Virus record (IMG/VR): IMGVR_UViG_3300044630_004720
Origin: a virus
Lineage: Duplodnaviria; Caudoviricetes
Length of the DNA stretch: 64,000 nucleotides
Strand: one strand, 5' to 3'
Shown here: piece after piece, positions 2,714 through 31,989 of the stretch
How positions within the stretch are numbered: position 1 is the first letter of the stretch
How the letters are laid out: each line of letters begins with the position of its first letter
Made by a program: the position numbers and the translations under genes
The notes under the pieces: model-generated
What the model saw: the letters and a program-made list of their open reading frames with translations, nothing else
The model's database searches: none
What the model was told of the DNA's origin: nothing

Positions 2714-2716
2714 GTA

Positions 2717-3352: not shown

Positions 3353-4272
3353 AAGATAAAAATTATGTAAAATCTGAGATGTTTGAAATTGAACCTCAGG
3401 ATATTAATGAAGGATTTTGGGAAAATGCTTTATTGGTTGCGGGTTTTATACCTGTAATTGGTGAAGTTGCTGACACAATTTTAATTATAAAATATTGGAG
3501 AGAGGGTAGAAAAATCGAGGCCGGATTAATGTTATTAGCATTAATACCAACGGTAGGTGATATTATAGTAAAACCATTCTTAAGATTAGGTAAAGCAGCA
3601 GGAGCATTTAAAACCGCAACTACATTTACTAAATTCATAACCGAAAATCCACAAGCAAGGGCGGCATATGCTAAGATTGGTAAACAAATGGATAATCCTG
3701 CTATTAATAAATTAGTTGCTCAAGTAGGTAAGAAGACACCACAAGGTGCGGAAGCTCTTACAGGTGCTATTGCATATCAAAAAAGTTTATTTTCAAAAGT
3801 AGGAAGTACTGTAAGTGACGCAAGTGCGAAAGTAGGTTCAACATTGGAAAGAGGTCTTGGGAAGACTATGAAACAAACATTTCAAGACAAAGCATTACAA
3901 AAATATTTAATTAAAACCGGTGGAGTTGCTCCAAGTAATTTCTTATCAAGATGGTGGAACGTTGTTTATAAAGGTAGATTAGATAGAAAAAATGCAGTTA
4001 GAAAATTAATTTTTGGAAGTAACTTATTAGGTGCTTTAGGGTTTCCTAATATTGAATCGTTAGAGAGAGCAATGGCCGACCCAAAACAAGCTGACGAGTT
4101 AATGAAAAACCCACAATTTGCACAATTTTATAATCAAGCAACAACACCCGAAGAACAACAATCAATGGCACAACCAGAACCGGAAAAAGAATCTGGTATT
4201 GGTAATTTATTAGGTGGTGCAGGTTCATTCGTTGGATTAAATGTATTAAAAAGTTTAGCTCGTTTTGTTTAA
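3328..4272 (+). CDS. Pre-toxin TG (PT-TG)-like domain protein (start codon uncertain)
   Basis: ALLVAGFIPVIGEVADTILIIKYWREGRKIEAGLMLLALIPTVGD matches the doubled (F/L)IPxxG helical-hairpin signature of PT-TG domains; preceded by DINE|G. Confidence 0.55.
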   Translation: MCGNMEKIKDKNYVKSEMFEIEPQDINEGFWENALLVAGFIPVIGEVADTILIIKYWREGRKIEAGLMLLALIPTVGDIIVKPFLRLGKAAGAFKTATTFTKFITENPQARAAYAKIGKQMDNPAINKLVAQVGKKTPQGAEALTGAIAYQKSLFSKVGSTVSDASAKVGSTLERGLGKTMKQTFQDKALQKYLIKTGGVAPSNFLSRWWNVVYKGRLDRKNAVRKLIFGSNLLGALGFPNIESLERAMADPKQADELMKNPQFAQFYNQATTPEEQQSMAQPEPEKESGIGNLLGGAGSFVGLNVLKSLARFV

Positions 4273-4287
4273 TTATGATATTTATTA

Positions 4288-4390
4288 TTAGAGTTTAATG
4301 GTTTGGTCACCATCAAACGATAATAATTGAAAAAACGAAAGGAGGTATTCAATCTCGGCAAAGGGGTCCTAAAGACCTCTTTGTTCGTTT
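4288..4390 (+). ncRNA. Candidate structured intergenic RNA (element E1)
   Basis: Hairpin gtttaatggt/accatcaaac, then a junction aaacgaa...ttcgttt enclosing gagg/tctc and caaaggggtc/gacctctttg stems. TATTTATT motif at 4279-4286 lies just upstream. Confidence 0.35.
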
Positions 4391-4413
4391 ATACCTATTT
4401 ACTATAAACGGTA

Positions 4414-5358
4414 ATGTTAAATAAGATAAAACTTCACGTATTTGGTGATTCATTCACTCAAACATTTAAATCCCACCAATCAGGAGGCTCTGCTTGGGGT
4501 AAAAAATATATGGAATATATTGGAGAGGTTCCTGATAGTTATACCGAAATAATTGCAAATCATTTTGATTTTGATTTAAAAAATCACGCAATTGGTGGGT
4601 GTTCGAATTATACAATATTTGACACATTTTTAGAAAAAAGAAAAGAAATATCCCAAGGGGACGTTGTGATTTTTGGATGGACCGCAATTAATAGATTTAG
4701 AATTGCAAATCATCAAAATAGATATGTTGATATTTTACCAAATACACCTCATCCAAAACAAAATGATGATGTTGATTTAATTACCACACAAGAAATTGCA
4801 ATTAATAGAGATTCGTATAATGTATATTGGAAAGAATTAGAAAATTTCATTATTGTGATAAATGAATTATTAAAAAGTAATCAAGTATATCATTGGTCTT
4901 GGGTACAACCGTCAACTAATGTTGTGGATGCAATATGGTCAGAAGAAAATCAAAAAGATAAAAATGTTATGATGTCTAAATCTTGGAAAAATTTAGACAT
5001 CGATGTAAAAAATGCAATTGGTAGGAGTTGTGATGTATTGTTAGATATGTCAAAACCATTTGATATTGAGGAAATAAAATCGTTGGTTAGTGATGGTAAG
5101 AGAGTTTTTGGTGTGAACGTAGAATTATGTCCATTAAGTAATTTAGGACCGTTTTATAACACTTTTAATTGTGTTGAATATAACACCACAAATCATAAAA
5201 AAGAGTGTTTCAAATTGTTTATTCCATACTATAGTTATGAAACAATTAAACAGGAGACAAATGGAAATATACCTGATATCCATTATAGTAGGAATGGACA
5301 TAAAGAATTAGCAAATACGTTTATAGATTTAATAGAAACAAAAAAACCCATCAATTGA
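4414..5358 (+). CDS. SGNH/GDSL-like hydrolase
   Basis: Block I HVFGDSFT, block II NHAIGGCSN, C-terminal DIHYSRNGH (DxH). Confidence 0.7.
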   Translation: MLNKIKLHVFGDSFTQTFKSHQSGGSAWGKKYMEYIGEVPDSYTEIIANHFDFDLKNHAIGGCSNYTIFDTFLEKRKEISQGDVVIFGWTAINRFRIANHQNRYVDILPNTPHPKQNDDVDLITTQEIAINRDSYNVYWKELENFIIVINELLKSNQVYHWSWVQPSTNVVDAIWSEENQKDKNVMMSKSWKNLDIDVKNAIGRSCDVLLDMSKPFDIEEIKSLVSDGKRVFGVNVELCPLSNLGPFYNTFNCVEYNTTNHKKECFKLFIPYYSYETIKQETNGNIPDIHYSRNGHKELANTFIDLIETKKPIN

Positions 5359-5371: not shown

Positions 5372-5769
5372 TGGTGGAGGTGACGGGAGTCGAACCCGTG
5401 TCTTGCTCGTCATACCATAAACGGACTACACGTTTATTCAATTGGTTCTCAACTGACAAATAGAAGGTTAATTTCAGAAAACCTACAACACTGTTCCTAA
5501 CCGGATTTTCAAGAGCCGTCAGGTTTGCTCCAACACTCTAAGGTGGTGTTACACCGTAAGTACTTCTGTTCCTAGGTTATATGTACGTCGACCCGAGGTA
5601 GTACCTAACTTGGTTAGGCTGCTACTTTAGAAGTTGCAAGTAAACCTGCTACTTCCATTTGGTTGTAAACGTTGCCGTTTAAATTGTTTCACCATAGATT
5701 TAAGTCATAGATGAATTCTGACTACGTGCCCATTTACCATATCAACGCCAATCAATACCAAACACCCCC
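5372..5769 (-). ncRNA. ssrA: tmRNA (398 nt), tag (A)GNVYNQMEVAGLLATSKVAA*
   Basis: 5' GGGGGTG pairs with 3' CACCTCC-ACCA including a G3.U pair; T-arm ACACGGGTTCGACTCCCGT; tag ORF at 5676-5614 starts with GGC and ends in AA-stop. Confidence 0.93.
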
Positions 5770-11948: not shown

Positions 11949-12087
11949 ATTATTTTTGTTCATTTTTTTTATCTGTTCACGGTCCGTAAACATTAGATAA
12001 TTGTGAACATTGAAAAATTGGCAGTTTTTGCCAAGTTAAATTATAAAAAATAATATACCAATAGTGACTTCTGTCATATTTATTGGT

Positions 12088-12621
12088 ATGACAAATAGAC
12101 TAAACGTATCGTTCTTACCGATACTGTATGTCCTTTTTATAGGCTTACTGGTAAGGATTTTCCAACCAATTGAGGACCCAAAATCCGTCTACGTAGATAA
12201 AGTAGAGAACAAAGTTGTTATTGGTAAACTTGCTAATAATAGAAATTTAGCATTTGGTGCCAAAAACATATTCCAAGAAATTTTACAGGATAAAGATTAT
12301 GTTATAGTCGAAGATATAACTAAAGCTGATTTGGTTTTTAGTGCTGAAATCTTATTTTTTGACGTTAATAAAACCAAGACTAATATCTCAGTATTTCATT
12401 CAGATAAAGAAGAGACTTTAGTGGTAATGAGAGGTAAGTTAACAACTAAAGAAGGTAAGAAAATCAAAGAGGCAGTTGCTGAAGAATCAAGTTCAGAAAT
12501 TTCAACATCAACATTAATAACCGATGAAGGTAGTGATAAAATAAATCAACAAGCTCTTTCATCTGCGATTAAAAAGACGTGTGAATCTTTAATAAATAAA
12601 GTGTTTTCAATTAAAAAGTAA
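12088..12621 (+). CDS. CsgG/HfaB-like fold protein with N-terminal hydrophobic anchor
   Basis: YVDKVENK...LAFGAKNIFQEIL...ADLVFSAEI...ALSSAIKKTCESLI follows the beta-alpha-beta-hairpin-alpha layout of CsgG/TolB_N-like proteins; probable start 12088 after TATTTATT (12077-12084). Confidence 0.45.
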   Translation: MTNRLNVSFLPILYVLFIGLLVRIFQPIEDPKSVYVDKVENKVVIGKLANNRNLAFGAKNIFQEILQDKDYVIVEDITKADLVFSAEILFFDVNKTKTNISVFHSDKEETLVVMRGKLTTKEGKKIKEAVAEESSSEISTSTLITDEGSDKINQQALSSAIKKTCESLINKVFSIKK

Positions 12622-12623
12622 AA

Positions 12624-14273
12624 ATGAAAAAACTATTAATTATCGGTGTGTTTTTATTATCCACCATTTCAACATTTGCTCAACTAACAGTCAATCAAAC
12701 TATAACCCCAACAACGGGATTAAAGGTTGGTGACACATTAACGGTTAAGTACACCGTAACTAGAGGGACAACGACACCAAGATATTTTTGGTTAAGATAT
12801 TCTTTTAACAATAAAGCGTTATCTATGGTACCGAACAGTACTGTGTTCTCACAAGGTAGTTCAACTCAAACGTTTTTCACCGGTTGGGATAACTATAAGT
12901 TTACACCGGCACCGAATGTTGCTGATACACAATTATATACACAATACACCACAACTCCTTGGGGATATGCTGCAAATAACGATTGGAATGTTGGTCAAAT
13001 CACAGTTCAGAGAACTGATGCTGCAATCAACGGGGATATTGCAACTCAAAAATTTGTATTGAAGGACCAAAACACATATAATGATATTCATAAATTAGAT
13101 TTATCATATGCAATTAATGACGCATCTGCTAATATATCGCCAATTACAAGAAGCTCAACAAATATTTCATTAAGTGGTGTTGTTGGTAATACTTCACAAT
13201 TTAAAGTGAAAGTTTTATTCCCACAAGGATATACAATTACTGACCATAATGTTCAATTAATGAAATTAAAAACAGATGGTAGTGGTACTATTGATTGGTC
13301 ACAACAACCAATTGCTCAATTACCTTTAGATGCAACGGGTGAGGCATTATTTACAACACAAGTTAAAGTTGGTGATAGTTTAGGTGTGTTTGTTAGTCCT
13401 GCATCACAAAAGGCTTGGATGAATAACGTTATTACAGTTTCAGACGCATACAAAGCGTTTTTAGGACATTCACAAACAGATATATCAGGAACTGCGAACT
13501 TCTTTACTTATCCAAATTTAGAGAAGAAGATTGGTAACATCACTAAAAATGATAGTGTATTTAATGAATCAGATTCATATTACTCATTTGCTTATGTTAT
13601 GGGTCAAGACGTTTCAACAAATGCGTTCATTCCAACACAAGCGGCAACTTCTTGGAGATGGCATAGTGGTTTATTAAATCAAGATTGGTTAAATGGTAAT
13701 ATTAAAAATAAAGTTACAATTGATACTCCTGTTAAAGAAGTGTATGCAGTGTACGCGTGGGGTGGTGACTTAAACTGGTCACATTCATCAGACCCAGCAG
13801 TAATTGCTAGTAGAATAAGTGCCGGACAATACACAAACTCAGTAAATTCAATTAATACTAAGACATCGATGTCAACACAATCAATGTCATATAAAGCTGA
13901 AGCGGTAGAAACTGCTAAGTTGAGTGTAACATCAACATTGGAAAACGGTAAAGTTGTATTAACAACAAATTTAACAAAAGAAGGATTGGCAGGATTGGAA
14001 GTTATTATGAACTATGACGAATCAAAATTAACATTGGATAATGTGATATTTGACGCGGGTTCAACAATAACAAACTTTTCAACACATAAAGACGGTAGAT
14101 TAACTTTCGGTTCTATTGACCAATTGAAAACTGCAAGAATTAAGACAGGAACTCCGTATAAGTTGATATTCACACCAAAAACAACTTTAACAAATACCGC
14201 CGGTTTATTCTACTTTGTTTTATCTGATGCTGTTGATGCGAAAGGAAATAAAGTTGATTTAATCGTCGAGTAA
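12624..14273 (+). CDS. Secreted protein with cohesin-like, dockerin-like and cohesin-like domains
   Basis: Sec signal STFA|Q; GDTLTVKYTV...LRYSFNNKAL; ITVSDAY...GNITKNDSVFNESDSY; GLEVIMNYDESKLTL...SDAVDAKG. Confidence 0.6.
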   Translation: MKKLLIIGVFLLSTISTFAQLTVNQTITPTTGLKVGDTLTVKYTVTRGTTTPRYFWLRYSFNNKALSMVPNSTVFSQGSSTQTFFTGWDNYKFTPAPNVADTQLYTQYTTTPWGYAANNDWNVGQITVQRTDAAINGDIATQKFVLKDQNTYNDIHKLDLSYAINDASANISPITRSSTNISLSGVVGNTSQFKVKVLFPQGYTITDHNVQLMKLKTDGSGTIDWSQQPIAQLPLDATGEALFTTQVKVGDSLGVFVSPASQKAWMNNVITVSDAYKAFLGHSQTDISGTANFFTYPNLEKKIGNITKNDSVFNESDSYYSFAYVMGQDVSTNAFIPTQAATSWRWHSGLLNQDWLNGNIKNKVTIDTPVKEVYAVYAWGGDLNWSHSSDPAVIASRISAGQYTNSVNSINTKTSMSTQSMSYKAEAVETAKLSVTSTLENGKVVLTTNLTKEGLAGLEVIMNYDESKLTLDNVIFDAGSTITNFSTHKDGRLTFGSIDQLKTARIKTGTPYKLIFTPKTTLTNTAGLFYFVLSDAVDAKGNKVDLIVE

Positions 14274-14274
14274 T

Positions 14275-16566
14275 ATGAAGAAACTATTAGTAATATGTTT
14301 TTTACTAATTTCATTTTTAGGGTTCGGACAGAGTGTATCTGCTCCGGACTCTAAATCATTTTTACCATCTACTAATGGACAAGATGCTAGTGGATTTGTC
14401 TTAAACGGATTTAGTTCCACTGCAACATTATTAGCATCAATCAGTTTAGTTAATCCACCATCAGGAACGACATTTGTATTAAACACAACAACAGGTTTAA
14501 CCGCTGCAAGTGGATTCACTTTAGCGGGTAATAAGACTCGTTTAGTGGTAACAGGTACAATGGCTAATATCAATACCGCATTATCATCTCTTAAAGTAAA
14601 CACAGGTTCAGTAAGAGGTAATGTTGTATTATCAGTGGCAGCAACCGTAAATCCAACCGGATATTTCTATAACGGAACAAATGGACACTTTTATAGACCT
14701 ATAACAACCGGAACAACTTATACAAATGCTAGAACACTTGCATCACAACAAACATTCAAAGGACAGCAAGGATATTTGGTAACAATAACTTCAGCAGATG
14801 AAGATGCTTTCATTTTTAATAATGTTCCACAAAATCAAATATGGTTTGCATTAACCGATGAAGTGGTGGAAGGACAATGGAGAATTGACGCTGGGCCTGA
14901 ATCTGGTACTTTAATCAAAACATCAAATGGACAAACTGCAGGAAATATACAAGGACAATATAATAACTGGGCGGGTGGTGAACCAAATAATAGTGGTAAC
15001 GAAGATTATGCGGTAACAAAATGGAATGGTTCTCAATGGAATGATTTACCAAATGGGTTTAATAATCCGTATGTGATTGAATTTGGAACTTGGACTAATC
15101 CTGATGATGCAACATTTACAGAGTTTTATACTAATTCAGTAACACATTCAAACGGAGAAGTCTTAACCGCAAGATTTAATTTTGATTTTGGTGGTAATGT
15201 TGATGAAACAAAATTTACCGCAAAATCAAATACGTTTGTAAACAATGTGTGGGGAACAACAACTAACACATCAAGAACAATAAGTGGATTAGGTAAAGTT
15301 GATTTAACAAATGATTTGGATACCACAAAAATAAATGGTGGTGGTGTTAGAGCAACAACATCAGGTGGACAAGTAGAATGGTGTGTAGTATATGATTACG
15401 AACCACAAAATCAAAGATACCAAATTTTAATTGATAAAAGAGAATTCCCACAAGGTACTTCAGCAAGTAGTGTTACTACTTTACAATTATTTGATTTATG
15501 GAATGGACCTGTAACTTATCAATGGGATGATGGAACTTGGGCAGCATATTGGATTTATACACCAACAGAATTTAATTTCTCTGGTTCATCATTTACATCT
15601 AATATAAGACGAGCGGGATTTTTTTGGGGGTTAAGTGCGGAATTTACATTCACACCAAATATGGTATTTAAACAACACGGGATTGATTTATCATATACCA
15701 ACCAAACCGAATTAAACACTTTATATAATAGTGTTGTAACCGTATCAGACGTTTTTATTGCCTTTAAAGAATTGTCAAATGGTGGAATATTTGGGAATGA
15801 AAGTGGAAACGAATTCACATCAGGTATTCAATTTATGAATGCAGATGTTGATGGTAATGGTATTTTTAATGAATCGGACACTTACAAATTATTACAACAT
15901 TTAACAGGGGTTGTACCACTAACACAATATTCTACTTTAACTTATTTGATGAAATTATATAGTAAAACCGAATATGATGCAATAACCAAATCAAATTGGA
16001 GCTCACAATTTAATTCAACAAGAAGTTTATATCCATTTAATTTGAATAGTGGTACGTTGAATAATACCTACAATGTTAATGTAACTTGGGTGGGTGATGT
16101 GAACTTGTCTCATTCGGCACTACAAACCACAAGTGGTGTTGTAAGTAATTCAATTAGAACTATGAGTTCATCAACTATGAGTTCATCAGTTCCTAATCAA
16201 ATCAATGCAACTCTTATGGGTGAAAACATCGGTGGTAAAGTTGTAATAACAATTTCGGTAGACCCTCTACAACAAGAATTAGTAGGAACTCAATTCCAAG
16301 TAAATTATGATAATACCTCATTAGAATTTCAAAAGGTAGATTTTACAACAAAGGGTAATCCTACAAATTTTGGAACAGACAGAGGTACGTATGTCACATT
16401 AGGTTCGTTAATTACAGATGGTTCAAATACATTGGATAAAATGACGGAGTATAAGATAACATTTATACCAAAAGTCGGCATTCAAGGAATATTGGGGTTA
16501 ACATCAATATCCGCCACGGATGCGGTTAATAAGAATGGAACATCTTTAAAAATAAAAATAAATTAA
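14275..16566 (+). CDS. Secreted adhesin-like protein: Ig-like + C-type lectin + dockerin-like + cohesin-like
   Basis: Signal FLGFG|Q; VVTGTMANINTALSSL; GYLVTITSADED..WFALTD..EGQW..YNNWAGGEPNN..WNDLP..YVIEF; NADVDGNGIFNESDTY; GTQFQVNYDNTSLEF. Confidence 0.7.
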   Translation: MKKLLVICFLLISFLGFGQSVSAPDSKSFLPSTNGQDASGFVLNGFSSTATLLASISLVNPPSGTTFVLNTTTGLTAASGFTLAGNKTRLVVTGTMANINTALSSLKVNTGSVRGNVVLSVAATVNPTGYFYNGTNGHFYRPITTGTTYTNARTLASQQTFKGQQGYLVTITSADEDAFIFNNVPQNQIWFALTDEVVEGQWRIDAGPESGTLIKTSNGQTAGNIQGQYNNWAGGEPNNSGNEDYAVTKWNGSQWNDLPNGFNNPYVIEFGTWTNPDDATFTEFYTNSVTHSNGEVLTARFNFDFGGNVDETKFTAKSNTFVNNVWGTTTNTSRTISGLGKVDLTNDLDTTKINGGGVRATTSGGQVEWCVVYDYEPQNQRYQILIDKREFPQGTSASSVTTLQLFDLWNGPVTYQWDDGTWAAYWIYTPTEFNFSGSSFTSNIRRAGFFWGLSAEFTFTPNMVFKQHGIDLSYTNQTELNTLYNSVVTVSDVFIAFKELSNGGIFGNESGNEFTSGIQFMNADVDGNGIFNESDTYKLLQHLTGVVPLTQYSTLTYLMKLYSKTEYDAITKSNWSSQFNSTRSLYPFNLNSGTLNNTYNVNVTWVGDVNLSHSALQTTSGVVSNSIRTMSSSTMSSSVPNQINATLMGENIGGKVVITISVDPLQQELVGTQFQVNYDNTSLEFQKVDFTTKGNPTNFGTDRGTYVTLGSLITDGSNTLDKMTEYKITFIPKVGIQGILGLTSISATDAVNKNGTSLKIKIN

Positions 16567-16571
16567 AAATT

Positions 16572-16868
16572 ATGAATATATCATTTGACTATAATGAGAT
16601 GAAGAATTTTATCTCTCACACGGGTAAATATAAAATTGTAAATGTTAAGTGTTTTATTCAAGTTCCTAGTAGTTGGTATAATCAATTTAGAAGAGAAGAA
16701 GAAGAAGTAGATATGGAAGTGGCTTACCTAATAGATGATATTGAGACTGAAAAATGGATATTTGACGAAAGATATAGAAAAAGAAAAGACGAACTTATGA
16801 GATGGAGTATCGAATCAGTTTTTTACAGAGAATTCAAAAGTAAAATATTAGATTTATTATATAAATGA
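16572..16868 (+). CDS. Hypothetical protein
   Basis: 98-aa ORF tightly packed in the operon; no signal peptide. Confidence 0.55.
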   Translation: MNISFDYNEMKNFISHTGKYKIVNVKCFIQVPSSWYNQFRREEEEVDMEVAYLIDDIETEKWIFDERYRKRKDELMRWSIESVFYREFKSKILDLLYK

Positions 16869-17752
16869 AAAAACTATTATTAATCATATCGTTAGTTTTA
16901 ATTGGGTTTGTTGCAAACGCACAAACACCCGATACATTACAACTATCTCCAAAAGAACTATTCGGAGAAAGTGATGATTGGAACGATGTGGGTATATTAC
17001 AATCCTATGTTAATTTTTCAAAAGATGTACTTTCATCATCAAATCTTTCAATAGGTGTAATTGGAAAACAAGTATCTACTACTCTTAATTTAGGGTACCA
17101 TAAATCGTCTTTAAATGGTCAATGGGGACATTCATTTGCTGCATCAATAAATCCTATATGGAACTATTATGGTGTGGGTTATGGTCTTAGTAAAAACACA
17201 GAAAAAAGAACAACTACAATACAAACATTCTATTCGACCGATTTTGATTTCCAAAAAGATGTTACATTATCATTTATTGATGTATTCAGAACTAAAAAGT
17301 TTGGAACATTTGGATATAGTTTAACAGCATCAAAATCATTTTGGGGAACTTATCAAGGTGAATGGGAAGGGAAATACACGGTAGATGAAAATGGTGATTT
17401 TAAAGATTTAATATATCCACAAATACCGGCATCATCCGAACTTACTTATAGAGGTATGGTGATGTACACTTACACATTGAAAACAAAGAGGGTAGATATT
17501 TCACCACAAGTATTTGCAATGAGTGATGTATATAAAGTATTCAAAGATGGAACTGAATCGGATTTATCATATGTAGATGATTTTAATTTGGACTTATATT
17601 ATGGTACATCTATTGATTGGAAAATAACTAAAAGATTTGTGTTGAATACCAATATCAGATATAATACAACTTGGGATAAATTAAGTGAATCAGTAGGTTA
17701 TAAAAAAAGTAACCCAATAATGTTTATGATAGGAACAAACTTTCAATTTTAA
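16865..17752 (+). CDS. Outer-membrane beta-barrel candidate
   Basis: Signal FVANA|Q; alternating amphipathic strands; C-terminal MIGTNFQF (aromatic BAM-type end). Confidence 0.7.
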   Translation: MKKLLLIISLVLIGFVANAQTPDTLQLSPKELFGESDDWNDVGILQSYVNFSKDVLSSSNLSIGVIGKQVSTTLNLGYHKSSLNGQWGHSFAASINPIWNYYGVGYGLSKNTEKRTTTIQTFYSTDFDFQKDVTLSFIDVFRTKKFGTFGYSLTASKSFWGTYQGEWEGKYTVDENGDFKDLIYPQIPASSELTYRGMVMYTYTLKTKRVDISPQVFAMSDVYKVFKDGTESDLSYVDDFNLDLYYGTSIDWKITKRFVLNTNIRYNTTWDKLSESVGYKKSNPIMFMIGTNFQF

Positions 17753-17755
17753 CAT

Positions 17756-18097
17756 ATGAAAAAAATACTATTCATATTTGTGATTTTACTATGGGGTTGT
17801 ACAAAAATGGAAATAGAACCTACCCCACCTCCTGTTGAGAAGATATTTACAGTGGGTGAGAGTACCGTTACTAATGGACAATCCATATATTTTGACCTAC
17901 CGTCCTCGGGAATATATACCCTAACATTTGTTGACGTTCAGACAGGACAAGTTATTAGTCGGGAAAAATTTACAGGTCAATCCGGCGAAAATGTGAAAAA
18001 AATATATACCAAATCCATAATGTCGAAGTATTTATATTTGATACTTGCTTCGGAAGACAAAACCCAAATAAGTAAGACAAAACTAACACTAAACTAA
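17756..18097 (+). CDS. Lipoprotein with T9SS-CTD/FlgD-like Ig domain
   Basis: Lipobox LWGC; IYFDLPSSGIYTLTFVDVQTGQVI...GENVKKIYTK. Confidence 0.55.
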   Translation: MKKILFIFVILLWGCTKMEIEPTPPPVEKIFTVGESTVTNGQSIYFDLPSSGIYTLTFVDVQTGQVISREKFTGQSGENVKKIYTKSIMSKYLYLILASEDKTQISKTKLTLN

Positions 18098-18098
18098 A

Positions 18099-18476
18099 AT
18101 GAAAAAACTAATCTTAACGGTATTTGTACTATTTGCCCTTACGGGGTGTTATAAAGATGATTTACTTCTTCCTGATATTAAACAGGATTTAAAACCTGAA
18201 TTACAAATTGCCAATAGCGTTGGTATTAAGTTAGAATCGGCTTTTGTAACCAAAGAAGTGTCAATGAATGTAAAACTTGAGAAGTCAGGTACAGTAACTT
18301 TAAAAATATTCGATATTGGAAATAAAGTAGTTTCAAAAGAAACTATAAATGTGAAAGAGGGTGATAATGTGTTAAAAATATACACATCAGCATTACCTTC
18401 TTCAGCATATAGAATTGGGTTATTTGATAACTCGGGGACTATGTTGGGTATCACAGATTTTAATAAAATAAACTAA
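18099..18476 (+). CDS. Lipoprotein with T9SS-CTD/FlgD-like Ig domain
   Basis: Lipobox LTGC; SGTVTLKIFDIGNKVV...EGDNVLKIYTSALPSSAYRI resembles the Por secretion C-terminal domain pattern. Confidence 0.6.
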   Translation: MKKLILTVFVLFALTGCYKDDLLLPDIKQDLKPELQIANSVGIKLESAFVTKEVSMNVKLEKSGTVTLKIFDIGNKVVSKETINVKEGDNVLKIYTSALPSSAYRIGLFDNSGTMLGITDFNKIN

Positions 18477-18496
18477 AAATTTTAAAACAAACAAAT

Positions 18497-18817
18497 ATGT
18501 CAGAAGAAGTAGAAAGCTCAAACGATGGTACTTGGTCAGGTCTTAAAAAGACCATTATTGGTGTTGCAACAACTGCGGTAATGGGTCTAGGGACTTGGGG
18601 AGTAACACAAATAACAGGTGGTGGAGATGAACCCGCACCTGTACAACAAGCAGCACCTGTAATTAACATTACAAACTCAAACCAACAAGCTCAACAGGCT
18701 TCAGGTGGTGGAGGTAAAACTGTTATTATTAAAGAAAAAGAAACCGTTAAAGAACCTGCAAAACCGGTTAAGAAAAAAGAAGGTGATGAATTTAAAGAGG
18801 AAGCTCCAAAATGGTAA
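18497..18817 (+). CDS. Single-TM protein
   Basis: IIGVATTAVMGLGTWGV helix followed by a low-complexity tail. Confidence 0.65.
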   Translation: MSEEVESSNDGTWSGLKKTIIGVATTAVMGLGTWGVTQITGGGDEPAPVQQAAPVINITNSNQQAQQASGGGGKTVIIKEKETVKEPAKPVKKKEGDEFKEEAPKW

Positions 18818-18823
18818 TTTAAT

Positions 18824-19426
18824 ATGAAAGAAGAACAATCAGGTGGATTTAAAGAATTATTGAGTAATATGATGAAACGTAGGTGGTTTATCACCGCTAT
18901 CGTTTTAGGCGGATTTATGGTAATCATTATGGGGATATTTGGAGCGATTCTAAATAAATCCGCAATAGAAGGTGAGTGGAAAGAACTTTTACTTTTATTA
19001 TTGGGAGCCTTCATTGGTTCTTATGGTAAAATCATTGACTATTGGTTTAGTGATACCGATAAGGATAAGATGTTGGTTCAAAAAATGGACGAGGAAGATG
19101 GTACATCATTAAGTAATACTGCCGATATGCCAAACAATCCAATTGTACCAATGTCAACTGCGCCATTAGTATTATCAGAATCAACCTCACAAGAAACAGT
19201 ACAAGTGGTTGAAGCACCAAAAGAAGAAAAGAAAGGTGTTGAAATCGATGAAGATGGTGATGGTGTAATGGATGGTTTAGATTTCGATGGCGATGGTAAA
19301 ATTGACGAATACTTTACACACAGACAATGCGAACACGTTTGGGGCGACTCAGATGGTGACGGAGATTTAGAATGTCTTAAATGTGGTAAAATAAAAGACC
19401 CCGAACTTGAAGAAATGGAAGGGTAA
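18824..19426 (+). CDS. Two-TM protein with DxDxDG Ca-binding-like repeats and Cys/His metal site
   Basis: Two TM helices; DEDGDG, DFDGDG, DSDGDG; CEH...CLKC. Confidence 0.65.
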   Translation: MKEEQSGGFKELLSNMMKRRWFITAIVLGGFMVIIMGIFGAILNKSAIEGEWKELLLLLLGAFIGSYGKIIDYWFSDTDKDKMLVQKMDEEDGTSLSNTADMPNNPIVPMSTAPLVLSESTSQETVQVVEAPKEEKKGVEIDEDGDGVMDGLDFDGDGKIDEYFTHRQCEHVWGDSDGDGDLECLKCGKIKDPELEEMEG

Positions 19427-19452
19427 TAAACAAAGACAAAAAAACAAAAACT

Positions 19453-19716
19453 ATGGGATTTTTAAAAGAACTTTTTAACGACAATAATACAATCAATGAA
19501 AAATCAGTTGTTGGTTTTGCATCATTTGTATGTATGGTAATTGCTTTAGTGGTTGACTTGGTAACAGGTTGGTTGGGTAAAGAATTACTAATTAACGAAT
19601 TTATATTCGACGGTTTCTTAGTAATAACGTTAGGTGCATTTGGTATTGCGTCAGTTGATAAATATATCAATAACAAACACAACAAAAAAGAAGAAACTGA
19701 AGAATCAGAGGGATAA
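19453..19716 (+). CDS. Small two-TM membrane protein (holin-sized)
   Basis: Two hydrophobic helices and a charged C-terminus. Confidence 0.6.
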   Translation: MGFLKELFNDNNTINEKSVVGFASFVCMVIALVVDLVTGWLGKELLINEFIFDGFLVITLGAFGIASVDKYINNKHNKKEETEESEG

Positions 19717-19744
19717 TAAGATTGACAAAAAAACTAATTAAATA

Positions 19745-19978
19745 ATGGTAAAATTAATTGACAAAATAACAGAAAATCTTTTCTCAGCATTTTTAATGTC
19801 TGCGTTAGCATTTGTCATATCGGCATTCTGCGTACAAATGTTTTTTGTGTGTTTACAATTTTCAGGTAATGAAGAATATCAAAGAAGATTAGTCAACAAA
19901 CTTGAAATTAAGTTTGATGGTAGATTTAAGAATAATCCAGAAAACATTATGTACGAAGGACCAATAGCTAAGAAATAA
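19745..19978 (+). CDS. Small TM protein
   Basis: Hydrophobic N-terminal half. Confidence 0.55.
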   Translation: MVKLIDKITENLFSAFLMSALAFVISAFCVQMFFVCLQFSGNEEYQRRLVNKLEIKFDGRFKNNPENIMYEGPIAKK

Positions 19979-19986
19979 AAAATATA

Positions 19987-20706
19987 ATGAAAAAAATAAT
20001 TTTATTTTTGGGTGTCATACTTTTTAGTGTAAACTCATTTGGACAAACAATTGGAAAAACAAAAACTGAAGAATTTAAAGCTGAATTTGAAAAGAAAAAA
20101 GACATTTCGGCTTTTATGGATTATGACGGACCTCAAATACCCATACAAATTCTAAAAGCAGGTATCTCTGATGAGGTATATGAAATGTATCCTGAATTAA
20201 AAGAAAAAAGAGTTGGTTTAGGTGTTGCAAATATATCTATGGAATATTTGGAAAATCTTAATCGATTCATTTTTACAGAGGATAAAACTGAAATCAAGAA
20301 TAGAATGGTTAAACAATTCCAAGCGTCCCAAGCCGGTATATCTGAAGATAAATTAGATGGTCGCGGTAAAATTAGGTTAGCCAAATATTTTGTCACAGTT
20401 GAGTGTTATGACTATTCAATATCTGAAGACGAGACAATTAACTTAAAGGATGGTATTAAAGATAATATGGTCACCCGAATTGGTTTACAGGTTAGATTTA
20501 CCGATGCGGAAACGGGTGCTATGTTTGGGGCTTCAGGTTTAGGTGAAGCCAAAACAAGTCGTGAGTTAACATTATTATCAGACGCAACTATAGACCCAAT
20601 TAAATTTAATCAATCAACAATTTCAATTGCAACAAAAAAAGCACTTGACATTGCTTGTGCTAATATTTTAGACAGAATGATTAAAAAGGGGATTTTTACA
20701 AAATAA
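19987..20706 (+). CDS. CsgG/HfaB-family secretion/assembly protein
   Basis: Signal NSFG|Q; GLGVANISMEYLENLNRFIFTE...AKYFVTVECYDY...RIGLQVRFTDAETG...GLGEA...KKALDIAC matches the CsgG layout (RFxVxER, LRxxDxxTG). Confidence 0.7.
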   Translation: MKKIILFLGVILFSVNSFGQTIGKTKTEEFKAEFEKKKDISAFMDYDGPQIPIQILKAGISDEVYEMYPELKEKRVGLGVANISMEYLENLNRFIFTEDKTEIKNRMVKQFQASQAGISEDKLDGRGKIRLAKYFVTVECYDYSISEDETINLKDGIKDNMVTRIGLQVRFTDAETGAMFGASGLGEAKTSRELTLLSDATIDPIKFNQSTISIATKKALDIACANILDRMIKKGIFTK

Positions 20707-20730
20707 ATCGTTTAACATAGTATGATTAAT

Positions 20731-20760
20731 AAAAAAGGAGGCCTAAAGACCTCCTTTTTT
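20731..20760 (+). terminator. Intrinsic terminator
   Basis: aaaaaaggagg-cctaaaga-cctcctttttt. Confidence 0.8.
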
Positions 20761-20789
20761 GATATTTATAAGATATAAAATTTATTGCT

Positions 20790-21620
20790 ATGAAAAAATT
20801 ATTATTAGTATTGACACTTATCCCAATACTATCTTTTTCACAAGTTAGTAATTGGAGAAGTAACCCAACAACACCACAAAGAAGTACACCATCCGTACAA
20901 CAATCAATTCCACAAAGAAACGATGTTAGTAATTGGAGAAGTCAACCACCATCAAGAGGGTATGATAGACCTATAAGAACAAGACCAGGTTCTAATATCA
21001 TTGTAAGAGACCCGTGGTTTGGTGGATTAGGATGGGGATGGAATAGATGGGATATGTGGGGAGCTCCTGGCTTTGGTTGGAACTTTTGGCAACCGTCTTG
21101 GTATTGGAATGATTGGGGATATAGACAACCACAAAGAATTTATGTTTACGAAGATGGTAAGAGAGATACAATTAGAGGTAAAAAGCCGGTAATTAGTTTT
21201 GGTATTCAGAGAACAACCGATAAACAATTGGGTGGGTTCTTTACCATCGGTAATAAGGGATATTTTATAATGGAATATAATTCAAGTGTAGAGAGAGATA
21301 ATTCAACATTCTTTCCATATGGTAATATAACCCAAGTAGACTTTCCAATGGTCAGTGATTTAGTTCAAAGAAATAGTTTCTATATCGGAGCAGGTAAAAG
21401 AATAAAGAGAACCGGTGTTCACTTTATGATTGGTACTGTTTCCGAAGATGTAAAATGGAGAGGTAGAGATGATTTGGGATATATTACTTTCCCAAAGTAT
21501 TTGGATAGATTCACCACGATAAAAGTGGGTGCATTACACGATTTCAAAAACTTAACAATAAAGTTTGATTACGACCCTGTAATCAATAATAAAACCTTTG
21601 GATTAGGTGTAAATTTTTAA
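20790..21620 (+). CDS. Exported protein: disordered R/P/W/G-rich N-terminus + small beta-barrel
   Basis: Signal LSFS|Q; repeated SNWRS; GWGW-rich segment; C-terminal FGLGVNF. Confidence 0.65.
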   Translation: MKKLLLVLTLIPILSFSQVSNWRSNPTTPQRSTPSVQQSIPQRNDVSNWRSQPPSRGYDRPIRTRPGSNIIVRDPWFGGLGWGWNRWDMWGAPGFGWNFWQPSWYWNDWGYRQPQRIYVYEDGKRDTIRGKKPVISFGIQRTTDKQLGGFFTIGNKGYFIMEYNSSVERDNSTFFPYGNITQVDFPMVSDLVQRNSFYIGAGKRIKRTGVHFMIGTVSEDVKWRGRDDLGYITFPKYLDRFTTIKVGALHDFKNLTIKFDYDPVINNKTFGLGVNF

Positions 21621-21623
21621 AAT

Positions 21624-22352
21624 ATGATTGATTTCGATTATAAGATTTACAAAATGTATGATGTTTTAAGTAAGGAAGAATATGATAAAGTTTCTGAATT
21701 AGTTAATAATTTCAATATTGATTTAAAAAATGTAACTTCTCCATTAGGTTTTTTGCAATGGTCCAATAAAATACAAAACGCATTTAAATTAAAACATCCT
21801 GACAGATATAATAGGATGGTTAATAATAATAGTTACAACTACAAAGATTATCAATGTTTAGCCGAACTTAATAAAGAAATAGGAGTAGATGAACACGATT
21901 ATTTTAATTTTTTAATGACATATAGGACGGAGGATTTAATGAATAGTAGAATCGTAAAATTATACGACACTGCCTTTAGAAATATTTTAAAAGATGTATT
22001 CAAAAAGGAAGTCATATATGACAAAGTGCTTTTTGGACATTTTAATATCTACCCGAAAAATTCATTTATTGTAAATCATACCGATGGACCAATGGCCGAT
22101 GATAGATATTTTACTTCTTTATTTTTTTTGAATTGTGGAAGAAAATATGAAGACGGTTCATTATTAAAAATATACACTAAAAATGGGGTTGTTGATGTGA
22201 TACCTGATTTTAACGATATTGTACTATTAGACCATATGAATTATAACTGCCGTCACGAAGTGACAGAAAATTTAATTGATGGTATTAGATATTCTCTTTA
22301 CACACCGTTTAAATTAGATGATTACAATAATAAATTAAAACAAGACATTTAA
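21624..22352 (+). CDS. 2OG-Fe(II) oxygenase superfamily protein
   Basis: NHTD (HxD), distal RHEV and RYS (RxS) motifs. Confidence 0.75.
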   Translation: MIDFDYKIYKMYDVLSKEEYDKVSELVNNFNIDLKNVTSPLGFLQWSNKIQNAFKLKHPDRYNRMVNNNSYNYKDYQCLAELNKEIGVDEHDYFNFLMTYRTEDLMNSRIVKLYDTAFRNILKDVFKKEVIYDKVLFGHFNIYPKNSFIVNHTDGPMADDRYFTSLFFLNCGRKYEDGSLLKIYTKNGVVDVIPDFNDIVLLDHMNYNCRHEVTENLIDGIRYSLYTPFKLDDYNNKLKQDI

Positions 22353-22356
22353 TTTT

Positions 22357-23757
22357 TTGAAAAATATAATAAAACCATTTTTAATATTATTTTTTATTTT
22401 CATTTCAAACGAGGTGATTGGTCAAACATACACTCAAACATTTATTGATAAGTGTACGGGTGAAAAGAAAATTGCAACGACTACTATGATAAATGGATAC
22501 GCGACAGTATCTTTTTATAATCAAGTAAGGACATTTACACCATTGGAAGTTCAAACGGGTGTTGTACAAACTTGGTTAATCACAACAAAATCAACATACG
22601 AGTCACTTACTTGTCCTGTAATTAATAATCCGGTGGTTCAACAAGCGGTTGCGAATGCTGCAACACAAGCGGCAGCGTCGGCTGCTAGTTCAGCCGCAGC
22701 ATCTGCCGCAAGTTCTGCGGCTTCATCATCCGCCAGCTCAGCAGCAAGTAGTAGTGCAAGTTCAGCCGCAGCAAGTTCAGCTGCGTCAACACCTCCACCT
22801 ACAACACCTCCACCGGCAAGTAGTGGTTCAACACCTCCACCGGCAAGTGGAGGAAGTTCATCTTCATCAAGTAGTGGTTCATCTTCTGAAAGTAAAACAG
22901 AAACAAAGACTGAAACTAAATCCGAAACTAAATCGGAAAGTAAGAGCGAATCAAAATCCGAAAGTAAGAGTGAGGAGAAAAAAGAAGAAACCAAATCGGA
23001 ATCTAAAGAAGAAAAGAAAGAAGAGTCTAAATCTGAAGAAAAGAAAGAAGAGAAGAAGGAAGAAAAAAAAGAGGAAAAGAAAAAAGAAAAAGCAGCATCA
23101 ACAAATCCGATGTTGTTATCTTCGGATTTATCAACAATAGAATCTCCTGACGGTAGATGGTTACAATCTGCAACGATTGGTGTATCTAAATCTTCGTTGA
23201 TGGGAGATAAGAGTTATTCCGCAAATGCGGTTATTATGAGTGATTTAAAAACATTTATAGTAAGTGCCGGATTTACTAAAATGGATTTTTCGAATGGTAA
23301 ATTAAATGCCATTCATTCGTATTCATCAGCATTCGCCTACTTGAATGGTAACTATATGAACCTATTAGGATATACCTACATAAAACCAACATTAAAAAAG
23401 GGAGTATTTGGTTACAATGTCGGTCTAATTAACCTATTACTTAATAATAGTGAAAAAGGAGGATATGACCATAATATGTCAACATCTGTAGTTGCCTTTT
23501 GGACTAAACCATATCAGTACAGTAAAAAATTAACTATCTCACCACAGATATTCACAATGTTTGCACCAATATCGTATAACAGCGAAGCTAAGACCACAAC
23601 AGTTAATAGACATATGGGATTCTTATTGGGGTCTTCGTTTGATTATAAAATAAGTAAACGATTTGGACTTAGTTTGAATTATAAATTGAGTGGTAATACC
23701 GCACCCGGTTCTCCATTCTTGAATAATATTTTGATTGGTAGTAGAATGATACTATAA
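22357..23757 (+). CDS. Exported protein: small Cys domain, long low-complexity stalk, C-terminal beta-barrel
   Basis: Signal EVIG|Q; Ala/Ser, Pro, Ser, K(S/T)E and EEKK tracts; amphipathic strands GSSFDYKISKRFGLSLNYK. Confidence 0.7.
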   Translation: MKNIIKPFLILFFIFISNEVIGQTYTQTFIDKCTGEKKIATTTMINGYATVSFYNQVRTFTPLEVQTGVVQTWLITTKSTYESLTCPVINNPVVQQAVANAATQAAASAASSAAASAASSAASSSASSAASSSASSAAASSAASTPPPTTPPPASSGSTPPPASGGSSSSSSSGSSSESKTETKTETKSETKSESKSESKSESKSEEKKEETKSESKEEKKEESKSEEKKEEKKEEKKEEKKKEKAASTNPMLLSSDLSTIESPDGRWLQSATIGVSKSSLMGDKSYSANAVIMSDLKTFIVSAGFTKMDFSNGKLNAIHSYSSAFAYLNGNYMNLLGYTYIKPTLKKGVFGYNVGLINLLLNNSEKGGYDHNMSTSVVAFWTKPYQYSKKLTISPQIFTMFAPISYNSEAKTTTVNRHMGFLLGSSFDYKISKRFGLSLNYKLSGNTAPGSPFLNNILIGSRMIL

Positions 23758-24855: not shown

Positions 24856-26874
24856 TTACAAAATTTTTTTTGACAAAATTAAAGTTTCGTCCTTAAATTT
24901 TATCGATGTAGTTGAATTTTCTTTAATATTACCTTTTAATATCTCCTCACTTAAAAAATCTTCACATAAATTTTGTATGATTCTCTTGATAGGTCTAGCA
25001 CCATATTCTTCTTCCGAATTCAATTCAAATATTCTATTGACAACTGTCTTGTCAAAGGAAATTTTGTAATTTTTCTCCGATAACCTATTGACTAGTTTGT
25101 TCAATTCAATGTCAATAATAACTTTTATCGTATCAGAATCCAATGGATTGAACATAATGATGTCATCAATCCTATTTAGGAACTCAGGGTTAAATTGTTG
25201 CTTTAATGATTTTTGAATTATCGATTTTTTTACTTCTGATTTTTGATTTTCCTTGCTTGAGGTTGAGAATCCCATACCATCACCAAACTCAGACACTTTT
25301 TTTGCACCGACGTTTGATGTCATAATGATTAGTGTGTTTGTGAAATTAACCTTTCTACCAAATGAGTCGGTTAAATGACCTTCATCAAGAATTTGAAGTA
25401 GGATATTGAACACATCTTTGTGTGCTTTCTCAATCTCATCAAATAATATAACGGAAAATGGATTATTTTTTACTTTCTCTGTTAATTGACCACCTTCATC
25501 GTAACCTACGTACCCTGGAGGCGAACCAATTAATCTCGATACGTTGTGCTTTTCCATAAATTCACTCATATCGACACGAATTATTTTATTTGGGTCTCCG
25601 AATATCGTTTCTGCAAGAGATTTTGCTAAATAAGTTTTACCTACACCTGTTGAGCCGAGGAAAATAAAAGAACCAATCGGTTTATTATTGTCTTTAATAC
25701 CAACTCTGTTTCTTCTAATTGATTTTGATATCGTTTTAATTGCATCATCTTGTCCAATCACTTTTGACGATAGGATATTCTCTAATGTCAATAATTTTTC
25801 GGTTTCTTTCGAGTCTAATTTACTAATAGGGACACCTGTCATATCAGAAACCATATTATACACATCTTCAACACTTACAGGTGTTTTATTTTCTTTTTGA
25901 CTGACAGCCCATTTGTCTTTTTCATCCTCCAATTTTTTGAAAATTTTTCTTTCTTCATCTCTAAGCTTAGCAGCTTTTTCATAATCTTGATTTTTTACAA
26001 CCAAGATTTTTTTCTCCTTAACCTCATCAATTTTTTTCTTTAAATCCTCAATAATTTCAGGAATTTTCTTGGAAATCTTTTTATTCGAGCCAAGTTCGTC
26101 CATAATATCGATTGCCTTATCAGGAAATTGTCTATCTGTGATAAATCTCGATGATAACATTACAATTGTTTCAATTACATTGTCATCAAACGACACTTTG
26201 TGAAAATCCTCATAAGATGATTTTAAATTTTGTAATATTTCAATTGTTTCTGTTTGAGTCGGTTCTTTTAAGATGATTTTTTGAAATCTTCTCACGAGTG
26301 CACCATCTTTTTCAATGTGTTTTTTAAATTCATCAAAAGTTGTTGCTCCAATACATTGAATTTCACCTCTCGCTAAGGCCGGTTTTAAGATATTAGCTGC
26401 ATCCATAGCTCCACTCGCATTTCCTGCACCAACCATCGTGTGTAATTCATCAATGAACACAATAACATTTGTATTTTCTTGTAATTCATTTAGAATCGCT
26501 TTAATTCTTTCTTCAAATTGACCTCTATACTTCGTACCCGCAACCAAAGATGTTAAATCTAATGAAACCAATCTTTTATCTAAAAGATTGCTCGGACAAT
26601 TGCCTTTATAAATTTGTAGAGCTAATTTTTCAACCAATGCCGATTTACCAACCCCCGCGTCACCGACAATTACCACGTTGTTCTTCTTTTTCCTTGACAA
26701 TATCTGTGAAATTCTTTTAACTTCAACGTCTCTACCCACGACTGGGTCTATTTTACCTTCTTCAGCTAAACGAATCAAGTCTCTTGAAAAATTATCAAGA
26801 ATTGGTGTTGATGAATTTGGTCTTTTACTTTTTTGATTTGGTTTTGCACCGTCTTCGAAGAAATCTACCGCCAT
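24856..26874 (-). CDS. clpC: ClpC-type Hsp100 AAA+ ATPase lacking the N-terminal Clp repeat domain
   Basis: [12 protein letters not shown] (D1), UVR linker [25 protein letters not shown] (D2), ClpP-docking-like loop GMGF. Confidence 0.9.
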
Positions 26875-31949: not shown

Positions 31950-31977
31950 AAAGTGGTCAAGTTTGACCACTTTTTTT
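31950..31977 (+). terminator. Intrinsic terminator
   Basis: aaagtggtcaa/ttgaccacttt stem followed by a T run. Confidence 0.75.
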
Positions 31978-31989
31978 GTATTTATATAT

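Follow-up and report, generated by a model that had tools for sequence, protein, structure and literature searches.

What use could a phage make of cohesins and dockerins, the pairs that classically join the parts of bacterial cellulosomes and that protein engineers routinely use as a tool? The question is raised by a 64,000-nucleotide stretch of viral DNA (Duplodnaviria, Caudoviricetes; IMG/VR record IMGVR_UViG_3300044630_004720), hereafter the window, in which two adjacent genes on the plus strand encode the proteins P0001 and P0002. A preliminary description of the locus had given both kinds of module to each protein and had proposed that the two might build a self-polymerising, lectin-bearing scaffold. 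We find that the cohesins are there, that the partner module is dockerin-like, and that one cohesin of P0001 is predicted to hold the dockerin-like helices of P0002, which points to an adaptor and its lectin cargo. The parts of the two proteins are as follows.

12624-14273, plus strand: P0001, 549 amino acids (open reading frame and translation), candidate adaptor scaffoldin; signal peptide, N-terminal cohesin, small beta domain, dockerin-like module, connector, linker and C-terminal cohesin, in this order
12624-12683, plus strand: signal peptide of P0001, read from the sequence (MKKLL..., hydrophobic core, FAQ at the end)
12678-13187, plus strand: N-terminal cohesin of P0001, residues 19-188, into which the dockerin-like module of P0002 is predicted to plug
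13188-13403, plus strand: second, small beta domain of P0001, residues 189-260, with strands at 192-258 in the AlphaFold2 model
13407-13613, plus strand: dockerin-like module of P0001, residues 262-330, from the alignment to the P0002 module
13614-13823, plus strand: connector ('X' region) of P0001, residues 331-400, with GDLNWSHS at 13764-13787
13824-13907, plus strand: Ser/Thr-rich disordered linker of P0001, residues 401-428, predicted local distance difference test score (pLDDT) below 50 at 408-424
13908-14270, plus strand: C-terminal cohesin of P0001, residues 429-549, homologous to that of P0002
14275-16566, plus strand: P0002, 763 amino acids (open reading frame and translation), candidate lectin cargo; signal peptide, N domain, C-type lectin, middle domain, dockerin-like module, connector, linker and C-terminal cohesin, in this order
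14665-15129, plus strand: C-type lectin of P0002, Pfam match at residues 162-267
15130-15708, plus strand: middle domain of P0002, residues 286-478, a stalk common to PA14-headed relatives
15724-15918, plus strand: dockerin-like module of P0002, residues 484-548, three helices, loop 2 at 15844-15879
15919-16134, plus strand: connector of P0002, residues 549-620, with GDVNLSHS at 16093-16116, pLDDT 87-95
16135-16185, plus strand: Ser/Thr-rich disordered linker of P0002, residues 621-637, pLDDT below 50 (module residues 152-166)
16186-16563, plus strand: C-terminal cohesin of P0002, residues 638-763, from its fold and the Pfam matches of its orthologues

That the window is phage DNA is clear from its large terminase (31963-33750), portal (33807-35645) and major head protein (39172-40905) genes, all recognized with PHROGs, and it also carries an array of 7 tRNA genes and a transfer-messenger RNA (tmRNA) gene. 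The phage is about 250 kb in size; a 249,493-bp contig is recorded for P0001/P0002 in the protein database. One freshwater metatranscriptome contains 16% of the sampled words of the window, a figure that carries no weight either way on expression or habitat.

P0001 and P0002 resemble each other over their C-terminal ~285 residues (25% identity, BLASTP expectation value (E) 7e-12), where each has a dockerin-like helical pair, a connector with the motif GD(V)(N/D)xSHS, the disordered linker and a cohesin. The two motif stretches that the preliminary description had seen in both proteins, at 13422-13604 and 15724-15909, indeed align with each other: VITVSDAYKAF...VFNESDSY of P0001 (residues 267-327) stands against VVTVSDVFIAF...IFNESDTY of P0002 (residues 484-545). 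The homologous C-terminal beta-sandwich reported there was also found, with the NYD...L motif at residues 462-469 of P0001 and 676-683 of P0002, the DAV...G motif at residues 534-541 and 748-755, and matches to cohesins. No other open reading frame (ORF) of the window contains a second copy of this module, and PHROGs assigns neither protein to a family. Searching 1.84 billion representatives with a profile of both modules retrieves 196 clusters (at 50% identity), of which 146 have E<=1e-10, and this number together with invariant or nearly invariant columns means that the likeness between P0001 and P0002 is not due to chance. By eye, we called a Sec signal peptide of Bacteroidota style at the start of both proteins (MKKLL, then a hydrophobic core and an FAQ or GQ end), and every full-length family member whose start is not visibly cut begins with a signal peptide of the same kind.

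The cohesin fold is a nine-stranded jelly roll. An AlphaFold2 model of P0002 residues 470-763, computed from 67 diverse sequences, has a pLDDT of 89.1 and a predicted template modelling score (pTM) of 0.87. Its C-terminal domain, residues 638-763, superimposes onto the cohesin 4ums_A with a Z-score of 13.8 and a root-mean-square deviation (rmsd) of 2.2 Å over 123 residues (VIA-align); the top 17 matches of that search are all cohesins, as are the top 48 Foldseek matches. The claim of an N-terminal cohesin-like domain in P0001 is borne out by comparably close matches of residues 19-188 to 6kgc_A and 4dh2_C (Z 13.1, rmsd 2.2-2.3 Å over 131-132 residues), and here too the 17 best VIA-align matches are all cohesins. 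In the model of full-length P0001 (pLDDT 90.0, pTM 0.69), the C-terminal domain consists of nine strands and its Foldseek matches are cohesins and cohesin dyads. This is the best-conserved domain of P0001 (entropy 0.59), and the linker preceding it has the highest entropy among the orthologues (1.8 bits). As to the small beta domain, multi-domain alignments to pilins give a poor rmsd.

An analysis with the Pfam Cohesin profile (PF00963) gives a consistent picture for P0002. Its own copy scores 22.1 bits, which is 2 bits short of the gathering threshold of 24.1, and seven orthologues, 80-83% identical to it over the module, score 25.0-26.3 bits and are above the cut-off. Among the 67 diverse module sequences, 37 match at E<=0.01; the strongest match of a full-length member is at E 3.3e-10. 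A Pfam scan of P0001 by itself matched neither cohesin copy, so that its membership is based on homology and fold. A search of the family profile against the sequences of the PDB matched solved cohesins at E down to 8e-7. Taken as a whole, the models strongly support three cohesin folds, two in P0001 and one in P0002.

The dockerin part of the original assignment fared differently. We took as canonical a Ca loop of 12 residues with D/N at positions 1, 3, 5 and 9 and D at position 12, followed by a helix, and as a dockerin two such F-hand repeats in tandem. The second loop of P0002 is canonical (DVDGNGIFNESD, 15844-15879). The equivalent loop of P0001 reads ITKNDSVFNESD and is degenerate at positions 1 and 3, and its loop 1 is degenerate too. 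Across the family, loop 2 has D1 in 48, N/D3 in 43, D/N5 in 57, D/N9 in 59 and D12 in all of the 67 sequences, whereas the ligands at positions 1 and 3 of loop 1 are missing from the whole family, so that a second canonical repeat is lacking. On Pfam Dockerin_1 (PF00404; cut-off 22.9 bits), P0002 scores 14.2-16.2 bits and its orthologues 12.7-16.5 bits, all below the threshold; the same scan of P0001 gave no match, and only 5 of the 67 family members reach E<=0.01 (best 9.4e-4). Hence, of the profile searches proposed for the pair, the one for cohesins succeeded through the P0002 orthologues and the one for Dockerin_1 did not.

The family profile does, on the other hand, match the solved dockerins 6kg9, 8ajy_B, 6kge, 6kgc_B, 4fl4_A and 3ul4_B at E 0.002-0.006, in profile positions 35-79. 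Up to E 10, 37 of its 39 PDB matches are cohesins or dockerins, and the other 2 are serine-protease chains that align to the dockerin-loop stretch only. At the level of sequence, the resemblance to solved dockerins thus appears specific, though weak. The model of the P0002 C-terminal part shows the three-helix layout (module residues 21-32, 48-54 and 64-74), and in the P0001 model the corresponding helices span residues 264-268, 272-283, 297-304 and 315-325. The module is therefore dockerin-like and not a member of Dockerin_1, a name chosen because of the sub-threshold Pfam score and the degenerate Ca loops. The statement that each protein carries both kinds of module stands for the cohesin and has to be softened to this extent for the dockerin.

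By hub we mean the dockerin-like part together with the connector and the C-terminal cohesin. Since the pTM of 0.87 applies to the whole, the 294 residues of the P0002 hub are predicted to have a fixed mutual arrangement, and with the three parts modelled as a single rigid piece, the C-terminal cohesin may be a structural element and not a free socket. The P0002 hub superimposes onto independent ESM Atlas models with template modelling (TM) scores of 0.72-0.90 over 253-285 residues, and the clusters to which those models belong are all labelled 100% viral. For full-length P0001 the TM-score falls to about 0.5-0.6, the position of the N-terminal cohesin not being kept, which suggests that this domain is attached flexibly. 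The best-conserved feature of the family is the connector motif GD(V)(N/D)xSHS, in which, among the 67 sequences, D is present in 67, G in 65, and S, H and S in 64, 62 and 63, respectively. A metal site, an interface and a processing site are candidates for its role.

The lectin of the preliminary description is found in P0002, where Pfam Lectin_C (PF00059) scores 29.9 bits and passes its cut-off of 22.6. The domain retains the EPN (residues 236-238; 14980-14988) and WND (residues 255-257; 15037-15045) motifs, and its PDB matches are mannose-binding protein, mincle and langerin. Disulfide-forming cysteines are absent from the lectin (residues 131-285); the whole of P0002 has only two cysteines, one in the signal peptide and the other in the middle domain. 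phmmer matches the middle domain to many family members of 640-880 amino acids, and Pfam gives a weak MrkD-like hint (E 0.015).

Do the two proteins bind each other? We predicted the complex of the P0002 hub with P0001 residues 19-190 in three runs accompanied by three controls. This is one of six possible pairs of the kind envisaged in the preliminary description, and here a contact in trans was indeed predicted: the complex scored 0.68 (0.66-0.75 in individual runs) and the best control 0.01. A score of 0.68 is reached by 58 of 80 solved complexes and by 2 of 110 mismatched pairs, rates that hold only roughly here because custom alignments were used. The runs share at least 90% of their contacts, and the pLDDT of the partner is at least 90. 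In the predicted complex, hub residues 24-38 and 64-78, which correspond to dockerin helices 1 and 3, and the edge of the hub's own cohesin face one side of the N-terminal cohesin of P0001. The conservation of this cohesin served as a partly independent check. Across 61 orthologues, its 31 interface residues have an entropy of 0.57 bits versus 1.07 for the other 141 residues (one-sided p 4e-4). Binding of the P0002 dockerin helices by the P0001 N-terminal cohesin is thus supported at the level of models.

The pair is a stable feature of related viruses. In IMG/VR, 119 stretches encode relatives of P0002, on contigs of up to 334 kb and with 51-87% identity among the 80 kept; one related record, 245 kb long and with terminal repeats, has been rated complete. 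We counted gene presence over 79 related viral loci. Orthologues of P0002 are found in 79 and those of P0001 in 78 of them, and the P0001-like gene lies directly 5' of the P0002-like gene in 72, the remainder being cut by contig ends or interrupted. In three related phage genomes of 238-251 kb, Pfam Cohesin matches are confined to the gene pair. The other weak Dockerin_1 matches in related phage genomes were rejected as partners, as they are single EF-hand-type loops in proteins that have no signal peptide.

In most full-length matches the module lies at the C-terminus of a protein of 500-880 amino acids, and what precedes it varies. The heads of 75 full-length relatives comprise Cohesin (27), PA14 (19), GLEYA (13), Lectin_C (5) and LCCL (2). 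No signal of an enzyme, a carbohydrate-binding module (CBM), a surface-layer homology (SLH) domain or a sortase was found in P0001, P0002 or these 75 relatives. A distant member of 770 amino acids (2376-4688 of a 5964-bp ENA scaffold) has a PA14/GLEYA head instead of the C-type lectin, and its gene sits two genes 3' of an Amidase_2 (endolysin-like) gene.

We sought cellular relatives with a pattern scan, based on a 9-sequence alignment, of 185,579 prokaryote species, each represented by one genome. A single relative was confirmed, on the 3368-bp contig JBIPMA010000251.1, which is binned in a lake metagenome-assembled genome of Schleiferiaceae (Flavobacteriales). It is 94% identical to the P0002 module; it was rejected as a cellular homologue and read as a mis-binned phage contig or a hint at the host. 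The family is essentially virus-only. A tblastn search of GenBank phages with P0001 and with the P0002 hub gave no match.

Around the pair, the following elements were recorded.

12064-23757, plus strand: co-oriented cassette around the pair, with exported, lipoprotein and outer-membrane-like products and tight gene spacing
12064-12621, plus strand: ORF of 185 amino acids with a GTG start, directly 5' of P0001
16865-17752, 20790-21620 and 22357-23757, plus strand: three signal-peptide proteins with outer-membrane-barrel-like C-terminal halves and an aromatic or Leu end
17756-18097 and 18099-18476, plus strand: small lipoprotein-like products of 113 and 125 amino acids, with Cys after the signal sequence
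18824-19426, plus strand: membrane protein of 200 amino acids
19987-20706, plus strand: CsgG/HfaB-like signal-peptide protein of 239 amino acids
20730-20761: strong terminator-like hairpin, then a T-run, directly 3' of the CsgG-like gene
21624-22352, plus strand: 2-oxoglutarate-Fe(II) (2OG-Fe(II)) oxygenase-type ORF inside the cassette, with no signal peptide
24856-26874, minus strand: Lon-like ATP-dependent protease near the cassette (phrog_4871, E 8e-242)
5372-5769, minus strand: the phage-borne tmRNA near the cassette

The synteny of the cassette is kept in related viral loci, and through its CsgG-like gene, and only through this gene, we reached a cultured relative, Flavobacterium phage vB_FspM_immuto (NC_055915; hereafter immuto), which grows on strain LMO8. 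The CsgG-like assignment has a language-model score of 0.94 with 173-174 shared features; the protein has no Pfam match, is kept in 67 of the 79 loci and is 53.5% identical to immuto gp017. The 185-amino-acid product, kept in 75 loci, has a hydrophobic N-terminus, no Pfam family and weak homology to immuto gp019 (E 4.5e-6). The three barrel-like genes are present, in the order listed, in 36, 23 and 59 loci; the 466-amino-acid barrel-like protein contains a long low-complexity stretch of Ser, Ala, Lys and Glu and is a homologue of immuto gp018. The C-terminal part of the 200-amino-acid membrane protein (70 loci) contains acidic loops of DxDGDG type in tandem, as well as two CxxC-like pairs; these loops are Ca-loop-like, with a spacing unlike that of a dockerin. 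The 2OG-Fe(II) ORF looks recently inserted, because it occurs in only 3 loci.

Some relatives bear the C-terminal tag of the type IX secretion system (T9SS; PF18962/TIGR04183). None was found in P0001, in P0002 or in their last 125-129 residues with Pfam, NCBIfam and searches of the isolated domains to E 10, nor with Pfam in the 67-member and 75-member family sets, with the limit that the filters of HMMER discard very weak similarities. That the tag can be detected in such proteins is clear from immuto gp015, which passes at 34.6 bits. Neighbors of about 630 amino acids in the Atlas and BFVD combine cohesin, dockerin and Por_Secre_tail on a P0001-like protein. Within the window, the best, weak match to the gp015 tag (E 0.006) is the 125-amino-acid lipoprotein-like product, which also has weak matches to DUF3244 (E 0.001) and Por_Secre_tail (E 0.017).

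Immuto is informative because it distributes the same kinds of module, in the same cassette neighborhood, over three proteins. Its gp013 (GenBank: 'lectin C-type domain-containing protein') has a C-type lectin with EPN and WND and a dockerin-like tail (family profile E 4e-4). gp014 ('hypothetical protein') has a cohesin-like N-terminus and a dockerin-like C-terminus that stops directly after GDVN (E 3e-6), and gp015 ('cohesin domain-containing protein') has a Pfam Cohesin match of 36.7 bits and the Por_Secre_tail T9SS tag. Homologues of the 106-amino-acid, CsgG-like, 466-amino-acid and 185-amino-acid products of the window lie 3' of these genes. Read from their sequences, gp013, gp014 and gp015 look like cargo, adaptor and anchor, that is, a hierarchical chain rather than a polymer. 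In immuto the terminal cohesin is tagged, whereas in the window each dockerin-like module is fused to a following cohesin on which no tag was detected. Literature searches found no paper on gp013-gp015.

The reading that we favor, and to which we would give about an even chance, is that P0001 is an adaptor that holds the P0002 lectin cargo in the infected cell's envelope through a contact of cohesin-dockerin type. The two proteins, a cohesin-dockerin pair outside any cellulosome, would be produced in the course of infecting a Flavobacteriales-type host and exported by Sec. Each would end in the conserved rigid hub of dockerin-like helical pair, connector and C-terminal cohesin; P0001 would bring its free, flexibly attached N-terminal cohesin and P0002 its EPN-type (mannose/N-acetylglucosamine) lectin head. 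The N-terminal cohesin would capture helices 1 and 3 of the P0002 dockerin-like module, and it is this capture that would make P0001 an adaptor scaffoldin and P0002 a swappable sugar-binding cargo. From the signal peptides and the cassette we infer that the complex sits in or on the envelope, together with the neighboring outer-membrane, lipoprotein and CsgG-like products. The folds, the homology of the modules, the conservation of the gene pair and its confinement to viruses are direct findings.

Several findings weigh against this interpretation. The contact between P0001 and P0002 is a predicted one, and because solved cohesin-dockerin complexes exist, its passing score may reflect likeness alone. 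The residues predicted at the interface on the dockerin side show no greater conservation than those around them. The dockerin-like modules are under the Pfam cut-off, with a degenerate loop 1, and that of P0001 is without canonical Ca ligands in both loops. Finally, as no T9SS tag was detected, the proteins could remain periplasmic.

How else could these parts be used? In the scaffold of the preliminary description, dockerin-like modules would bind the cohesins of neighboring molecules head to tail and thus form fibres or a branched lectin-bearing mesh. The pair has three cohesins and two dockerin-like modules for this purpose, Cohesin matches occur only inside it in the three related genomes, one contact in trans is backed by prediction, and a flexible linker of 15-28 residues precedes each C-terminal cohesin. 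Moreover, in the predicted complex the hub's own cohesin leaves dockerin helices 1 and 3 uncovered and may therefore have its binding face available to a further plug. We nevertheless hold such a polymer to be unlikely: the supporting prediction concerns a single pair out of six, the models show the hub as a rigid piece within one molecule, the P0001 dockerin-like module lacks canonical Ca ligands, and the split system of immuto reads as a three-step chain that ends in a T9SS anchor. The same rigidity could be taken further. If there were no plug-and-socket function at all, the hub would be a fixed stalk or anchoring domain and the proteins would be independent secreted adhesins or lectins, which would agree with its pTM of 0.87 and its like arrangement in other models, with the degenerate Ca loops and with a module that is always C-terminal beneath variable heads, like a common anchor. 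However, the complex prediction passes its controls through the canonical dockerin helices, the N-terminal cohesin of P0001 has a conserved patch and, as a 'head', no obvious ligand except a dockerin, and in immuto the modules are on separate proteins. We therefore find a hub that is solely a stalk quite unlikely.

Two further explanations concern where the proteins act. They could be periplasmic until lysis and then coat virions, debris or other cells with a sugar-binding layer, and the missing T9SS tag, the position of the cassette ~8 kb upstream of the packaging and head genes and the distant relative near an amidase gene are compatible with that. Signal peptides on all members and neighbors of outer-membrane, lipoprotein and CsgG type point to the envelope instead, and no virion protein with a dockerin or a cohesin was found in related genomes, which makes action after lysis improbable. 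Alternatively, the C-terminal cohesin could itself replace the T9SS tag as an export or attachment signal that is read by the phage CsgG-like protein, by the beta-barrels or by host proteins. Relatives of ~630 amino acids pair a P0001-like architecture with Por_Secre_tail and the P0001/P0002 clade does without it, the C-terminal cohesin is the best-conserved part of P0001, and the cassette genes co-occur. Such a signal seems very improbable to us in view of the full cohesin fold of the domain and the lack of any detected likeness to T9SS tags.

The adaptor-and-cargo reading can be placed within a wider proposal, which we consider possible and put forward tentatively: a virus-encoded cohesin-dockerin self-assembly, based on the fused hubs and the one free cohesin and taking the form of a heterodimer or a longer chain, would lay a lectin-bearing layer in or on the envelope of infected Flavobacteriales with no need of the T9SS tag of related phages, and its heads (C-type lectin, PA14/GLEYA, LCCL) would be swapped between phage lineages.

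Of the known systems, the cellulosomal X-dockerin scaffoldins are near in layout, for example Clostridium thermocellum CipA CohI9-X-DocII with its SdbA/ScaA-type cohesins (3kcp, 4fl4, 2b59) and Acetivibrio cellulolyticus ScaA/ScaB (3l8q, 5nrk). They, too, have a cohesin and a dockerin on one chain, a connector packed on the dockerin and Ser/Thr-rich linkers; the cohesin fold agrees at Z 13-14, and the predicted contact likewise uses dockerin helices 1 and 3. In contrast, the pair belongs to a virus of a Gram-negative Bacteroidota host, carries a lectin and not an enzyme as its cargo, has no CBM, SLH or sortase anchor, follows a C-terminal dockerin-connector-cohesin order, and has a degenerate first Ca loop and a dockerin below the Pfam threshold. 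It is scaffoldin-like in its working and is not a cellulosome. Use outside cellulose degradation, including single proteins with both modules, is known from the GH84/GH33 toxin-complex modules of Clostridium perfringens (2jh2, 2vo8, 2o4e, 2w1n) and a cohesin of Archaeoglobus fulgidus (2xdh). They rank with the closest structural matches (2jh2_A comes first in Foldseek; 2xdh has Z 12.1-12.6) and differ in being cellular proteins, whereas here we deal with viral contigs, lectin heads and a fused rigid dockerin-connector-cohesin hub. Peer et al. reportedly surveyed non-cellulosomal cohesin and dockerin modules in the three domains of life in 2009.

The kinds of module are therefore already known, as are proteins with both of them, in cellulosomal scaffoldins and in the C. 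perfringens and A. fulgidus systems. What is new is that such a pair has a viral origin, a Bacteroidota host and a lectin cargo, that its hub is fused and rigid, and that its clade lacks the T9SS tag; literature searches found no paper describing cohesin-dockerin pairs in a virus. A parallel in purpose comes from huge phages of Gram-positive hosts, for which sortase B and its substrates were proposed to serve host-surface display (bioRxiv 10.64898/2026.10.24.761521). There, too, the proteins bear signal peptides, are encoded by a large phage and presumably end up on the surface of its infected host, although the chemistry and the host envelope are different, and the words cohesin, dockerin, lectin, CsgG, adhesin and T9SS do not occur in that preprint.

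As immuto is a cultured relative, the question is directly testable. If the adaptor-and-cargo reading is true, widespread large aquatic phages would rebuild the surface of infected Bacteroidota with exchangeable lectins. This would provide new, small plug-and-socket modules that are probably orthogonal, among them a compact unit in which dockerin, connector and cohesin are fused, and it would bear on the adhesion of infected cells to particles, algae and other cells, on superinfection and on aggregation.

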